Shown here: positions 19,259 through 40,901 of the stretch, piece after piece
Numbering within the stretch: the first letter of the stretch is position 1
How the letters are laid out: every line of letters starts with the position of its first letter
IMG/VR virus record: IMGVR_UViG_3300035498_000877
Span: 192,001-256,000 of that record
Direction: 5' to 3' (one strand)
Source of the DNA: a virus
Taxonomy: Duplodnaviria > Caudoviricetes
Length of the DNA: 64,000 nucleotides
Notes under the pieces: model-generated
What the model saw: only the letters and a program-made list of their open reading frames with translations
Database searches by the model: none
What the model was told of the DNA's origin: nothing
Position numbers and translations under genes: made by a program

Positions 19259-22107
19259 ATGGCTAAATATGTTGATGACCATTTTGATCATCTAGTCAGT
19301 GACATAGAAAAGATAAGAGTCAGACATAGACAATATATATCTTATTCTAATGAAGCTGGTGCAAAATCAGTAGTCGATGAGATATTAAATAACTCATTGG
19401 ATGAATGTAGAAACCCACGTTCACCAGGTAAGAATATTCACATCGAATTTGATGAAAGGACTGGATTTATTACAGTTGAGGATGATGGAAGAGGAATTCC
19501 AACTGATAAATTGGAAGAAATTTATACATCATTGAACATGGGTTCCAATATTAATACATCAAATAAAGCTAATCTTAAAGCAGAAACATTAGGTCAAAAT
19601 GGTACTGGTACACTTGCTATATGTGGATTAGCAGAACATGTTGAAATTGTTTCAAATAGAGGAGGTACTGAAGATATCTCAAAGACATTAATCTTTGAAG
19701 AAGGTAAAAAAGTTGCTGAGAAAATATCACCTAAATGTACTAAACATGGTATGTATGTTAAATATAAACCATCTAAAGTAATGGGTAAAAATACAAAGAT
19801 TATTTGGCAAGATGTAAGAAATGAATTATTGAATCTTCAGTTCTTAAATAAACAAAAGATTCATATGGATTCTATTTATTATGATAAGAATGGAAAGAAA
19901 ACTATAGAAAAATATATAGCATATCCATTTGTAGAAATTCTATCAAGGAATAATAAAGAGAATTTAATAAGTAATAAGTATTTTGTTACAGCTAGTGATA
20001 ATAATCAGGTTGAAGAATTAGATGGAATTAATGTAAAACGATTTATAGAAATTGATGTAGCATTTGCATATACGAATTCTTTAAATCCATACATTGATTC
20101 ATTTAGTAATTCAAATAATACTGTGGATAATGGAGATCATTTAGATGGTGCATTAGAAGCATTATGTAGATATCTTCAAATAGCTGTTAAGAATTCATTA
20201 TCTGAAAAAGAAAAATCATCTTTGGATATTAAATGGGATGATGTAAAATCTGGACTATCTATATGTGTGGCATTAAGAACTAATTTTGAACGATTGTATA
20301 CAGGTCAGACTAAACACAAAGTAGTATCATCTGAAATTAAGAGAGCAATAGTTCAATTGGTTCAAGATAACTTAAATCTATATTTCCAAAAGAATCAATC
20401 CCAATTAAGAGAATTAATTAATATAGTAAAGATGAATGCTAAAGCTCGTAGAGAAGGTGATCGAGTTAAAACGGCTGTAGTAAAAAATACTCTGAATAAC
20501 TGGTCTTCATATAAGATCAAAAACTATGATCCATGTGCAAGAACGGGAGTTAAAGAGTATAAAGAGTTATACATCATAGAGGGCGACTCGGCAAAAGGTA
20601 GCTTAAAGAAGGCTAGAGATCCTATGTTTCAAGCACTATTTGCAATCAGAGGCGTATCACTTAACGTTTTTGGGGTTCAACTGGATGAAATAATAGGACA
20701 AAATGGAAATAGAGAATTTACAGACTTAGTAACAGTTATGGGCTGTAATGTAGGCGCTAAATTTGATATAAATAAAATGCAGTTCAATAAAATAATCATA
20801 TCATCAGATGCGGATAAACAAACTATGTCCGCTTAAAACTTCTTTAATTGCTGGGAGTTCCTTAGAGCTTTAATTACTATTAATAGTAATAATATTAAAG
20901 ATTGGATAATCAGCAGTTAAGCCAAAGTGGAAAATTCATCGACTATCGACCAGCTATGGTATTCGAGAAATACGGTACCAATATAGTCAGTAGAGTACAC
21001 CCAAAGTGAATGTGGGCCATAAACCATGGAATGGAGTGGGGTAACTGGAAACGGGAAGTAGTTGTACATCGGTAATAGATGTACACTAAAGATATAGTCA
21101 CAACGATCAATAGATCACTCAACCTTGAGATAGGTTGTTGTCCTATGAGAGTAGGAGAAGCATTAAGTTGCTGCTAGTATGTTGCGAGTACTAGTGTAAG
21201 ATAATTGATAGACGGATTATTTATTAGAAGTTTACTATTAGCATTCTTCTTTAAAATGTTTCCGGAACTTATTTATGATGGTAGGATTTATATAAGTGAA
21301 CCACCTCTGTATAGAGTAGATGATAAAAAGAATCCATTTGTAATTAATAAAGCCGATTACTTGGATAGATATGTAAAGTCAGTTACTAAAGATTATAAAG
21401 TTGGACATTATATATCAAAACACAATATAGAATATTTTGATAAGAAAGATTTAATAGAATTTCTATCAGATACATCTACATATGTAGATGATATGAGTAT
21501 GCTTCAAAAACATTATCAGATTAATGATAGACTATTAGAAATTATATTAGAAGAATTTTCTATGTTGTTAGATAGCGAGAAAACTACACCAGAAGAAATT
21601 ATTATGAGAACAAATATACAGCATCTGATGGATCGAATTGGTGAGGAATTCAAAGAACTTCAATATGATGACACTCATCATGAGATTAAAGGAAGTATAG
21701 ATGCAAAGATGCAGCTTATAGAAATATCAACTAATCTTGTTAAGCGTTCAATGTCTATAATAAAGATAATGAATAAATATCATGTTGGAAAAAATAAATT
21801 TGTATTGCTAGATATCAGAACTAAATCTGAATATGATTTATCATTATTAGGAATATTAAAGATGTTAAAGAAATATCAACCAACAATACTTCATAGATTT
21901 AAAGGTCTTGGAGAGAATGATGATGAGGATATTAAAGAAACAATTATGGATCCAAATACCAGAACTTTGATCAGAGTAAATATTGAAGATATTGAAAATG
22001 ATGCTAAGATATTCCAATTATTAAGAGGAAAGACAACAGCTGATAAGTTGGGACGTAAAACAATGATGCGTGAATATCAGATTGATCCAGCATTGATTGA
22101 TACGTGA
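19259..22107 (+). CDS. gyrB: type II topoisomerase / DNA gyrase subunit B, spliced (exons 19259-20815 and 21208-22107; 818 aa)
   Basis: EILNNSLDE, DDGRGIP, IEGDSA, RFKGLGE; intron removal restores Toprim motif DAD|IDG in frame. Confidence 0.9.
20816..21207 (+). mobile_element. group I intron in gyrB (392 nt, no ORF)
   Basis: P1: exon GCGGAU pairs GUCCGC with U-G at splice site; P10 CUAU/AUAG; core AATTGCTGGGA, AATCAGCAG, CGACTATCG, AAGATATAGTC; ends in G. Confidence 0.92.
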
Positions 22108-22163: not shown

Positions 22164-22940
22164 ATGCCAAGAGTAAAGAAAACTGAAAAAGAAGAAGAGT
22201 TAGATATCAAGAAACCCGTACGAGATTCTGTTGTAACTCGGTGGTTTAAAGAGAATGCTGGAGACTCAGCACATGATCTAAAGATTGTATCTGAACTAAC
22301 TGCACGTAGTTGTTGGGATCAGTTCAATTTAAGCCCTACAGTATCTGGAGAAGTTTATGCAGTAATATTCTATGCAACATTTATGACAATAATTGATTTC
22401 TTGATGTCACAGAGAAAGAAGTATTCTCAATATACTATGGAAATCGGACAGTGCATCAATATTGGGTATATGAATAATACAAATGATGATAATGAGAAAG
22501 TAGGATCATTTGATCCAATCATTGAGTACATTGGCACAAATACACGTGTGCAGAAAGATAATGAAACAAGTATCACAGCAAATCTTAATAAATGGAAAGG
22601 TGCAAATGTTAAAACAGAAGATGAAATTAGGGAAAAGATTGAGAAAGCAACACTTGCTAGACTTAATTCAGATGAGTTTAAGATTGATACTAGAACTGAT
22701 CAGATGATCTTTCCAATATTTGGTACATTCATGGATAATCTTGTTGCATATGTAAAAGTTAAATACAAAGAAGCAATGGGTACAAATGTATCTACAGTAT
22801 CAATAGATGTATTCAGGATATTCAGAATCAAGTATTCATTCAATGAAGAAGAGAATATGGAATGTATTGAATATGAGCCATTAACATTGATGAAGTGTCC
22901 TATGAAATCAGATGATATTTCTAAGACATATGTAGATTAA
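22164..22940 (+). CDS. hypothetical protein
   Basis: 258 aa, AGGAGG RBS, promoter motif at 22117-22125. Confidence 0.7.
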   Translation: MPRVKKTEKEEELDIKKPVRDSVVTRWFKENAGDSAHDLKIVSELTARSCWDQFNLSPTVSGEVYAVIFYATFMTIIDFLMSQRKKYSQYTMEIGQCINIGYMNNTNDDNEKVGSFDPIIEYIGTNTRVQKDNETSITANLNKWKGANVKTEDEIREKIEKATLARLNSDEFKIDTRTDQMIFPIFGTFMDNLVAYVKVKYKEAMGTNVSTVSIDVFRIFRIKYSFNEEENMECIEYEPLTLMKCPMKSDDISKTYVD

Positions 22941-23795: not shown

Positions 23796-24185
23796 ATGGA
23801 AACAGAAATTGAAACATGTGCAAGAATACCAACACCAGCTATTGATAAAAATGGAAATGAATATATCATTTGTGTTAAATTAGGTGGAACTTATCAGCCA
23901 CCTCATTTCTATGTATTTAAAGATCCTACTAGTTGTTCAGAATGGAAAAGTGGATATGCTATAACATTTCAAGGAAACTTACTAACAGAGAGAGGAATGT
24001 CTATAGTAGATCCAAGTCAAGATATGCTAGATGCTGTTAAATCTAAATTATCAGATATGAATGAAACTGGAGAAATACAGAATTGGCAAATATTATTAAT
24101 GCTATGGAATTATTCTAATCCGAAAGTACAACTTACATATCGAAATATGCCCGAAGATTTATTTAAAACAATAAAACGATTTTAA
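23796..24185 (+). CDS. hypothetical protein with PPHF motif (DUF4160-like?)
   Basis: 129 aa, QPPHFYVF motif and terminal WN..NP. Confidence 0.5.
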   Translation: METEIETCARIPTPAIDKNGNEYIICVKLGGTYQPPHFYVFKDPTSCSEWKSGYAITFQGNLLTERGMSIVDPSQDMLDAVKSKLSDMNETGEIQNWQILLMLWNYSNPKVQLTYRNMPEDLFKTIKRF

Positions 24186-24223
24186 AATAAAGAGAGGGAA
24201 TCAAATCCCTCTCTTTATTTTTA

Positions 24224-24778
24224 TTAAATAAATTGAGTACATTCTTTTTTCTGTTTACCAAGTTTCTCAAATCTCTTTTTAGTTTTATATCCAGAGGCTC
24301 CTAATATCTTATCCATACATGGTTCAAATGCTTCATTCATTTTTTCCATAAACTTATCTGCATATCTATTTACATTTGCAGATTCCTGTTGAAATCCTTC
24401 CATTACTAAATCTTCTTTTACTTTATTAATGGTATTTGTCAATGACTTAATTCCTTCAGTATATGATTTAACAAATGACGGCAATTCAGAATATTTTAAT
24501 TTACATTCTGAAAATAGTTGAGTATTAATAAATGTATCAACGCTTTCATTTATTGTTTCATCAGATGATCTATTATCATTATTTACATTTTTAATAATGT
24601 AATCACAATAGCCCTCAAGATATTTGCTAAATGTATCAAATGATTCTTGGATATTAAATCCTGGAAGTGTTTGTCCAGTTATATTTAAACCAAAATCTTT
24701 TGATATATCATCAATAAATTTCATCGACTCTTCATCATATTTTTCTAAGAAATCTTTAATTGCATTATCTATTATCAT
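24224..24778 (-). CDS. hypothetical protein, possible head protein
   Basis: 184 aa; several xxE-S/G motifs (IQES, INES, VMEG, QQES). Confidence 0.55.
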   Translation of the reverse strand: MIIDNAIKDFLEKYDEESMKFIDDISKDFGLNITGQTLPGFNIQESFDTFSKYLEGYCDYIIKNVNNDNRSSDETINESVDTFINTQLFSECKLKYSELPSFVKSYTEGIKSLTNTINKVKEDLVMEGFQQESANVNRYADKFMEKMNEAFEPCMDKILGASGYKTKKRFEKLGKQKKECTQFI

Positions 24779-24919
24779 GAGATATAACTCCTTTCTAAAA
24801 ATTTTAATAATTTTATTTAAACGTTGTTACATATATATTTAAATAGTTGACAATATTTCATTCTTTGCTTATTTCCCCATTCACGGAGAATGCAATATTT
24901 TCAATTATATATTATTATA

Positions 24920-25252
24920 ATGAATGAAGATAAGTATTCAGTTTGTTATGTATTAAAATAATTATCGATGTCAAAAATGAATTACCAATTAGAATCCAGC
25001 TCCTTAGATATGAATTCTGTACCTCTTAGATAGAAAATATATTTTATGGATATAAATTGGGATTTGTTTATTATGACTATTTCCTCTAAAGTAAAAAGGT
25101 TTTAATGTGAGCACTTCCTTTCACGATTCATTATCTTCATTCATGCATTCACCTATGGGCAGATATCTTACTCGTATCTGCCACTCCAAAGTATTCCGCA
25201 TTAACTGTGACGCTAGATATTAGATCGCGCGTCATGGTTAAGCGGGATTTTT
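24920..25252 (+). ncRNA. candidate structured ncRNA: 225-nt rod with central bubble (6S-like), then two hairpins
   Basis: starts just after promoter motif 24907-24915; perfect 14-bp closing helix 24920-24933/25131-25144 and nested collinear helices; ends at GC-rich hairpin plus T5; no sizeable ORF. Confidence 0.65.
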
Positions 25253-25314
25253 AATCGTTAATTTGACACATTGTGTCTTATTATAAAATAAAAACATTTA
25301 GGAGGTAACAGATT

Positions 25315-25560
25315 ATGAAGTATCCAGAGAAATATCTTTTGGAAGAAGGAGTAAGCCAACCAGAGAACACTACTATAGTGGAGTGTGAGATTTGTCACAG
25401 AAAGTTTGCAATTCCCAATGATGAATTGGAAAAGATGACCGCAAAAATATGTGAGAATGAGGCTTGTATTAAGGCAGCAAATGAGCAGGCAGCTGCTCAA
25501 ATTAAAAATCTGATGAAAGCAAATACATCGGATGATGTTAAGACAGCATTAGGAAATTAA
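25315..25560 (+). CDS. small zinc-finger-like protein
   Basis: AGGAGG RBS; CEIC...CENEAC. Confidence 0.7.
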   Translation: MKYPEKYLLEEGVSQPENTTIVECEICHRKFAIPNDELEKMTAKICENEACIKAANEQAAAQIKNLMKANTSDDVKTALGN

Positions 25561-40755: not shown

Positions 40756-40901
40756 AATGATTGGGAGGATTGATTCCTCCCAATCGTATGTTTCCATTTT
40801 TCATTAATATATTCTAATAATGTAATAAGATAAGAGTAAGTTATCATTATTATATAAAAACTGAATATAATATATTAAAATTATCTAAGGAGGATATTAA
40901 A

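Follow-up and report, generated by a model that had tools for sequence, protein, structure and literature searches.

What does a giant-phage genome keep in a 536-nucleotide (nt) gap between two divergent genes? The question is raised by a 64,000-nt stretch of viral DNA (the window), bases 192001-256000 of the 289,234-base-pair (bp) IMG/VR virus record IMGVR_UViG_3300035498_000877, which is rated complete and has about 30% G+C. An RNA element lies in its divergent intergenic gap at 24779-25314, and an earlier note, made from the letters of the sequence, had read 24907-25144 as a promoter motif followed by an unbranched, 6S-like rod that would act as a decoy for RNA polymerase. We find good evidence, from a comparison of related genomes, that the gap encodes a conserved, structured non-coding RNA on the + strand, and we propose that it would act on translation. 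To our knowledge, few regulatory RNAs of virulent phages have been described, and for giant phages with anaerobic or low-GC hosts there are almost no examples.

The conserved unit proved to be longer than the 238 nt delimited in that note. It covers about 335 nt of the + strand, from ~24916-24920 to ~25253, and extends past 25144 through two G+C-rich hairpins and a U-run. Folding z-scores were -4.86 for 24916-25254 as the + strand and -3.40 as the - strand, -5.36 for 25140-25262 and -4.74 for the whole RNA of a relative, L013. In both the window and L013 the + strand is the more stable (in the window -86.6 versus -75.7, owing to G-U pairs). The predicted fold (Table 1) consists of a closing stem (P1), an apical hairpin with pair probabilities of 0.90-0.95 and the 9-nt loop ACCUCUUAG (25021-29), a hairpin with an exposed loop (P8), and, beyond the closed domain, the hairpins P9 and P10, the second of which is the probable intrinsic terminator and 3' end of the RNA. 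When the whole window was scanned with the 4227 models of Rfam at gathering scores, no match was returned; at E<=10, 24700-25400 gave five chance-level matches, none of them 6S, and there were no Rfam matches in the relatives L013, L014, L012 and L010. Absent from Rfam and from the literature searched, this is a small, previously undescribed family of phage non-coding RNA.

The promoter motif that had been placed ahead of the element is real. Its core, TTATATATTAT, recurs: in the form TTATATATT[A/C]T it has 36 exact copies in the genome, mostly before start codons (27 of them 22-72 nt ahead of a predicted one), and the copy at 24905-15 is among them. That copy carries the extended consensus ttttcaaTTATATATTAT and is an outlier, with 399 nt free of open reading frames before the next start; it alone among the 36 combines such a region with strong downstream structure (mononucleotide-shuffle z -4.7). 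It is nearly invariant in L002, L014 and L013 (a single C/T difference in L013), and the same motif stands at the syntenic position in L004, L006, L008 and L010. The P1 duplex, formed by the first 26 predicted transcribed bases with downstream sequence, is likewise the strongest among the 36 copies (-19.1, against a mean of -10.9 with a standard deviation of 2.9). On its own, a 14-bp inverted repeat is not significant: by Markov shuffles, each genome should have about 3.5 of them that fall within 300 nt.

Relatives with the gap were reached through homologues of the 184- and 81-amino-acid (aa) proteins encoded on either side of it, and the conserved RNA was found as three distinct sequences only: the window, L002/L014 and L013. 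Over the gap, identity to the window is about 93% for L002 and L014. L013 has diverged, with about a quarter of alignable positions different and many indels, and a fourth lineage is represented by P0002, with 77% identity to the L013 neighbour protein. BLAST of the gap and of the surrounding 10 kilobases (kb) against 50,697 phage records gave no match, and exact-peptide locus searches with both flanking proteins found none. The single IMG/VR match to a pattern of motif c, then AAAAGGTT, then motif d (L015) was rejected as a chance match, since it falls within coding sequence of the opposite strand. MAFFT alignments put P9 and the rod in the wrong place; the RNAalifold consensus was left unused, and pairs were counted helix by helix.

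Counted in this way, stems change and loops stay. Window and L002 differ at about 6 positions in 24896-25144, and at about 15% of positions in the 117 nt upstream (24779-24895); the L002 changes 24920 A>G and 25066 G>A fall at paired positions and convert A-U to G-U and U-G to U-A in the + strand. P9 carries one compensatory double change in L002 (A-U to G-C), and in L013 7 of its 9 stem pairs are altered on both sides, with the pairing and the loop CUUACUC kept. Between the window and L013, P11 (stem at 25265-77) has two compensatory pairs (GAUGC/GCAUC in L013), the apical hairpin forms in both with its P5 helix AUCCA/UGGAU becoming GUAUUCACA/UGUGAAUAU (C-G to U-A), P8 is retained through a register shift and P1 with other letters (GUAGAUGGAGAAGAAA versus UUUCUUCUUCAUC.G.UGC, -19.3 kcal/mol). 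L002 and L013 retain P10, in which a G-U pair has become A-U and the pairing has shifted; L004 and L012 also keep a closing stem, of different sequences. The blocks that are invariant between window and L013 (CTCCTTAGATA, ACTATTTCCTC, ACTTCCTTTC and TCTTACTC) have unpaired probabilities of 0.54-1.0. The pyrimidine-rich invariants, which are anti-Shine-Dalgarno-like and the best-conserved blocks of the RNA, are CUCCUUAGAUA, for the most part in an internal loop (motif a), CCUCU in the apical loop, ACUAUUUCCUC (motif c), ACUUCCUUUC in the P8 loop and UCUUACUC in the P9 loop. Across these five motifs the mean unpaired probability is 0.54-0.98 in the window (whole RNA 0.39) and 0.65-1.0 in L013 (0.38), with 0.54 and 0.67, respectively, for motif a. 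Conserved coding potential is excluded: a 38-aa frame at 25107-25223, behind AAAAAGG, has 1-nt indels in L002, and its conserved blocks change frame in L013.

These exposed motifs are complementary to translation start regions. The 81-aa gene next door has its ribosome site and spacer at 25296-25314, and with these the segment at 25013-31 is predicted to pair at -19.8 kcal/mol, which ranks second among 248 start regions (z -3.5). The equivalent pair of L013 reaches -22.6 kcal/mol and outscores the whole set of 248 (z -4.9). Swapping the partners between window and L013 weakens the duplex (-15.5 and -12.1); the spacer, UAACAGAUU in the window, is CAUGGAAAU in L013, and the hairpin arm has changed to match, so that the two sites co-vary. 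In a control in which the start region of every gene was compared with its own upstream 360 nt, only 3 other genes reached equal energy. Exact complements of 10-11 nt were found for three motifs. That of motif a, TATCTAAGGAG, occurs at six start sites, directly before the start codon (five of them within the 248-gene set); that of motif c, GAGGAAATAGT, in 2 start regions, one at window position 22164; and that of the P8 block (motif d), GAAAGGAAGT, in 7. All three complements are almost absent from the genome outside start regions. The adjacent 81-aa gene is the best-supported candidate target.

We give about an even chance to the proposal that this RNA is a base-pairing repressor of translation, working as a small RNA in trans, as a leader in cis, or as both. 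Transcription would start at the promoter-like motif, and the 5' end would pair with 25131-44 to close a multi-hairpin domain, followed by two hairpins of which the last, P10, would be the terminator. The loops would display pyrimidine-rich motifs complementary to Shine-Dalgarno and start regions, and the apical 5' arm and loop would pair with the 81-aa ribosome site and spacer, repressing translation. In trans, the RNA would act after termination at P10, like small RNAs with CU-rich loops; in cis, read-through of P10 would yield a long leader that masks the start region, as in the early transcripts of T4 e and I-TevI. Other loops may act on further phage genes that have matching start regions. 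The apical loop and the neighbouring start region form a pair that can be tested by mutation, with natural compensatory variants in two phages.

Base-pairing small RNAs with CU-rich loops are established in low-GC Gram-positive bacteria, among them LhrC1-5 of Listeria, RNAIII, RsaE and SprD of S. aureus and FsrA/RoxS of B. subtilis (PMC4132741). LhrC binds the Shine-Dalgarno region through three redundant motifs, located in a loop, a single strand and the terminator, and the LhrC4-lapB duplex uses the 5' side of a stem together with its loop (PMC4132741). By computation, the locus RNA resembles this type in its redundant pyrimidine motifs in loops and single strands, complementary to Shine-Dalgarno sequences, and in having its own promoter and terminator. 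Its predicted duplex likewise takes the 5' side of a stem plus the loop, so that the hairpin must open. It differs in its motifs (CUCCUU, CCUCU, UUCCUC, UUCCUUUC and CUUACUC, not UCCC), in its length of ~335 nt with a 5'/3' closing stem, and in being phage-encoded with an adjacent gene as best target; there is no sequence or Rfam relationship between the two.

Several observations weigh against base-pairing repression. We infer transcription, the RNA ends and any regulatory effect from the features, the fold and the complementarities described here; the stop of the phage polymerase at P10 is a prediction, and the 81-aa gene could have a promoter of its own, for which there is a candidate. With only three distinct sequences, the covariation rests on very few independent events. 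In the window the match to the neighbouring start region ranks second rather than first. Start regions in this genome resemble one another, and pyrimidine-rich loops will match some of them by chance; the Monte Carlo chance of at least one exact match to a start region is 0.17 for motif a, 0.06 for motif c and 0.61 for motif d. Anti-Shine-Dalgarno-like 4- and 5-mers are not significantly enriched in the RNA, with 5-21% of genome windows of the same length having as many. Moreover, no start region holds a complement of either conserved block, TTGTTTATTAT or TAAAAAGGTT, and both arms of P10 are conserved in sequence beyond the needs of a simple terminator, which implies that part of the RNA serves another role. 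Duplex folding of the whole RNA against start regions gave unrealistic duplexes with long loops and was not helpful.

The reading from which the question started, a rod with a bubble that mimics an open promoter and sequesters host or phage polymerase, now retains almost no credibility. What it has in its favour is a domain closed by a 5'/3' stem at ~225 nt behind a phage promoter-like motif, and pairs that are all chemically possible: the 14-bp helix 24920-33/25131-44 is perfect as described, and in the nine helices listed by the note 65 of 65 pairs are standard or G-U. As an unbranched rod, however, the stretch folds at -36.3 kcal/mol, 6.7 worse than the minimum free energy of -43.0. TGTT/AGCA and 24949-59/25099-109, the two helices on which the proposed central bubble depends, reach pair probabilities of only 0.00 and 0.02, and the fold predicted in place of the rod is branched. 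The folding z-score of the 238 nt is -1.37, with 16 of 200 shuffles as stable, and -1.62 for the - strand. The rod as delimited is thus a branched fold with the stability of shuffled sequence, an outcome that the note had itself counted against a 6S-like RNA, and no match to the Rfam 6S models appears even at E<=10. Of the covariation in related phages that the note had proposed to look for, several helices of the longer RNA show it, and the bubble helices of the rod are not conserved.

Relatives point the same way. L013 lacks the 5' strand of the lower rod (~24962-24984) and keeps the opposite side as the blocks TTGTTTATTAT, ACTATTTCCTC, TAAAAAGGTT and ACTTCCTTTC, which form separate small hairpins, so that P1 there closes a multi-branch rather than a bubbled rod. 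In L004 and L012, the same promoter, first bases (RUGAAUGA) and closing stem enclose unrelated contents. Judged by these sequences, what the family has in common is its closing stem rather than a bubble. Because selection keeps unpaired pyrimidine motifs complementary to ribosome-binding sites, the RNA would be directed at translation, not at RNA polymerase. The likeness to 6S RNA (Rfam RF00013 and related models) comes down to a non-coding RNA of a few hundred nt with paired ends; the locus RNA differs in being branched, without a predicted or conserved bubble, and what it conserves points to ribosome-binding sites. In AT-rich DNA, drawing a rod by eye gives no evidence of a 6S-like RNA. What stands of the original observation is a structured non-coding RNA behind a promoter motif; its limits (the real unit reaches ~25253) and the 6S analogy do not.

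The RNA could instead be purely a cis-acting leader or attenuator of the 81-aa operon and never a free regulator; P10 would be a regulated terminator, and structures upstream would either choose between read-through and termination or mask the ribosome site, one version being a temporal switch of the kind seen in T4. Such masking is known from T4, where it affects the ribosome sites of e, soc, 49 and I-TevI in long early transcripts (PMC3014915), and the two arrangements share an upstream transcript segment complementary to the start region of the next gene, with timing control possible if a second start site lies between. The masking strand of T4 lies immediately beside the site, whereas here it lies ~280 nt upstream, inside a conserved and elaborate RNA, with a terminator between. 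A leader would fit the absence of any TTATATATTAT-type promoter between P10 and the start codon at 25315, where a TTGACA at 25263 is not conserved (TTGATG in L013), and the conservation of P11 and of the blocks CGTTAATTTGA and TCTTATTATAAA between terminator and ribosome site. In full-length folds the ribosome site is also paired, in the window with 25184-87 (0.93) and in L013 with the apical loop (~1.0). Nevertheless, an L012 RNA that shares the promoter, 5' end and closing stem stops at a strong terminator facing a convergent 1509-aa gene, so such a locus can be a free-standing RNA gene. Sequences like TTATTATAAA lie 10-30 nt before other genes and could mark a second promoter here; TCTTATTATAAA itself (25276-87), between P10 and the 81-aa gene, resembles sequences before other genes. 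No antiterminator alternative to P10 was found, and a 330-nt multi-hairpin RNA with five conserved loops far exceeds what masking needs. We consider a cis-only role unlikely.

The main rival to base-pairing repression is a role as protein scaffold or decoy, in which the closing stem and the repeated pyrimidine-rich loops would hold or soak up a protein of host or phage, or would mimic the 16S ribosomal RNA 3' tail. The RNA would then work as a Y-RNA-like particle or as a translation decoy rather than by antisense pairing. This possibility arises from the same slot in relatives, defined by the promoter and the 184-aa neighbour: in L004, L006 and L008/9 it lies directly upstream of a gene carrying DUF2828+DUF7788. 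The profile of that family (43 members) has as its best PDB sequence match Ro60, in the vWA region (E 0.03), and an AlphaFold model of the protein (predicted local distance difference test, pLDDT, 88.6) gave top 12 PDB matches that are all Ro60/TROVE proteins, full length, at E 1.8e-7 to 1.6e-5, including Xenopus and human Ro60, Deinococcus Rsr and the Ro60 of Thermus phage phiLo. By its model, this neighbour folds like Ro60. A phage Ro60 with Y-like RNAs upstream of its gene has been published (PMC12135203, PMC4201824), and the Ro-binding motif of bacterial and phage Y RNAs is GNCGAA/CGAA (PMC4201824). The locus RNA shares with such partner RNAs a stem of the 5' and 3' ends (P1, probability 0.97) that closes a variable body with pyrimidine-rich loops, and L004 has the RUGAAUGA 5' end with a closing stem. 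The RNAs of the slot in relatives bear ACAGCAAU hairpin modules, which were found in L004, L006 and L008 only. The P8 loop CACUUCCUUUC is one base off CACCUCCUUUC, the 16S ribosomal RNA tail of low-GC bacteria, and the conservation of TTGTTTATTAT, TAAAAAGGTT and the P10 arms is left unexplained by antisense pairing.

Set against this, the complete 289-kb genome of the window has no Ro60-like gene (no PF11443 match and no match to the L004 Ro60-like protein), and 24916-25253 contains neither the CGAA/GNCGAA motif nor the ACAGCAA handle; for these reasons we do not file the locus RNA as a Y RNA. No partner protein was identified, the 184-aa neighbour being confidently modelled as all-helical with no PDB fold match, and the co-variation of apical loop and start region is left unexplained by a decoy. 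Overall, we regard a scaffold or decoy role as unlikely. More improbable in our view is a combined form, in which the RNA would be a multi-headed mimic of the anti-Shine-Dalgarno tail that titrates many ribosome-binding sites at once or diverts a factor recognising the 16S 3' end, having arisen in the slot of a Ro60 partner; if true, it would be the translational counterpart of the 6S role in transcription.

The RNAs found in this slot differ widely. That of L004 (5300-5890, - strand of the locus) is a structured RNA of ~590 nt (z -5.8; gap 43% G+C; no Rfam match) with the same promoter and the GUGAAUGA start, whose closing stem encloses ~440 nt of G+C-rich sequence; it contains two AAGACNC...ACAGCAAU...GNGUCUU hairpins and lies directly upstream of the Ro60-fold gene. 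On the - strand of L008 (5291-6000) and L009 (5282-6000), in a gap of 21% G+C before the Ro60-like gene, there are five tandem hairpin modules, alike in their loop motif YNACAGCAAU and covarying in their clamp stems (AAGACUC/GAGUCUU, AAGAUAC/GUAUCUU, AAGACAU/AUGUCUU and GGACAC/GUGUCC). In L012, a 251-kb phage, the same promoter and GUGAAUGA start (863-1345) are followed by 4-5 copies of a two-hairpin module of ~62 nt, CUACC-N-AUAAACU-N-UGGUUCUUCAGRAC..UGAGCAUG..CUGAAGUAAA, the first two inside the closing stem; a type III antitoxin-like array and a decoy are both possibilities for it. One promoter and closing-stem slot thus carries different RNAs, namely Ro60 partners, a tandem hairpin array in one phage and an anti-ribosome-site RNA here, which suggests modular exchange of non-coding RNA cargo between related phages.

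Finally, the conservation could reside in the DNA, as an operator, looping sites, an origin or a small mobile element with terminal inverted repeats. The gap does hold two divergent promoter-like regions and a 25-nt inverted repeat at 24840-24911, and the P1 arms are 211 bp apart, start to start. Against a DNA-level role, several changes keep pairing through G-U only, which has meaning in + strand RNA and none in DNA, stems co-vary around fixed loops, and a terminator-like hairpin with a U-run closes the unit. The element is single-copy in the genome, with no skew inflection at its position and no target-site duplication, and a mobile element was rejected on the last point and on copy number. 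We judge a DNA element very improbable. A CsrA-type GGA sponge on the - strand was also rejected, because only the + strand has the terminator and the G-U pairs.

Table 1. Features of the divergent gap and its flanks (window coordinates).
Feature	Sequence	Position	Strand	Remarks
Promoter-like motif	TATTTTCAATTATATATTAT	24896-24915	+	core TTATATATTAT at 24905-15
P1 closing stem, 5' strand	AUGAAUGAAGAUAA	24920-24933	+	14 bp, perfect, with 25131-44; pair probability 0.97
Apical hairpin	CCAAUU/AAUUGG, AUCCA/UGGAU, AGAUAUG/UAUAUUU, UUCUGU/AUAGAA	24985-25060	+	
Motif a	CUCCUUAGAUA	25000-25010	+	mostly internal loop; invariant between window and L013
Anti-start-region segment	AAUUCUGUACCUCUUAGAU	25013-25031	+	5' arm of top helix and apical loop
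Motif c	ACUAUUUCCUC	25076-25086	+	invariant 11-mer
P8 hairpin	loop ACUUCCUU	25107-25124	+	block ACTTCCTTTC invariant, unpaired probability 0.8
P1 closing stem, 3' strand	UUAUCUUCAUUCAU	25131-25144	+	pairs with 24920-33
P9 hairpin	GGCAGAUAU/GUAUCUGCC	25158-25182	+	9 bp; loop CUUACUC invariant
P10 long hairpin and U-run		25194-25253	+	hairpin 25194-25247, U-run 25248-52; -29.7 kcal/mol
P11 small hairpin	GACAC/GUGUC	25259-25283	+	between terminator and ribosome site
Translation start region of 81-aa gene	AUUUAGGAGGUAACAGAUUAUG	25296-25317	+	proposed target
Other start regions of the phage	TATCTAAGGAGG, GGAGGAAAUAGU			
184-aa gene		24224-24778	-	flanks gap
81-aa gene		25315-25560	+	flanks gap, downstream of RNA

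None of the 81-, 56-, 117- and 193-aa neighbour proteins had an informative match in Pfam or PHROGs, and no informative family was returned for the 184-aa neighbour either. A PF04997 search of the genome was negative, an outcome that is not informative given how divergent giant-phage polymerases are. A gut metatranscriptome run (X1) and a DNA run (X2) each contain small shares of the stretch; the X1 RNA contigs span only 24586-24813 and 25275-25479, not 24907-25253, at a depth too low to show absence.

The 25-nt inverted repeat at 24840-24911 (84% complementarity) separates the two divergent promoter regions and reaches into the upstream edge of the + promoter; in L013 the equivalent place is taken by an inverted repeat of different sequence, and the repeat could be an operator or a bidirectional stop. 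On the other side of the gap, a box containing ACGTT (24816-24835, - strand reading; AAACGTTGTTAC, and CACGTTCTAAC in relatives) is kept 25-50 nt ahead of the 184-aa gene in the window, L013, L006, L008 and L010, and is probably the promoter or operator of that gene.

A second repeated promoter/leader cassette, TTATTACATA[A/C]AAACTGAATAT, is present at window 40859-40901 and at genome positions 191938, 179950(-), 137616(-), 38720(-) and 35931(-). It precedes six genes, most starting MSN or MSK, with a ribosome site ~20 nt later (TATCTAAGGAGG in 4 of the 6 copies), and is probably a distinct temporal class of promoter. A - strand ACATAACAAACTGAATAC within the element (24953-24936) was considered as a further instance of this cassette and rejected, since L013, L004 and L012 lack it and the 9-mer is no more frequent than chance predicts. 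Outside the window, no gene is predicted in the more than 2 kb behind a copy of the first promoter at genome 67796 (-); this stretch (65400-67800) has repeated TTATATAATAT motifs and moderate structure (z -2.7).

Elsewhere in the window, gyrB is split: one frame, 19259-20836, runs from ATPase to Toprim, and a second, 21205-22107, holds the GyrB C-terminus, with ~370 nt between them; the GyrB of L004 is unsplit, at 833 aa. The terminators of this phage form a sequence family, AATAGAAGAGGGAT...ATCCCTCTTCTATT and variants, that is found genome-wide (for example, at window 24184-24208) and supplies most of the 14-bp inverted repeats of the genome.

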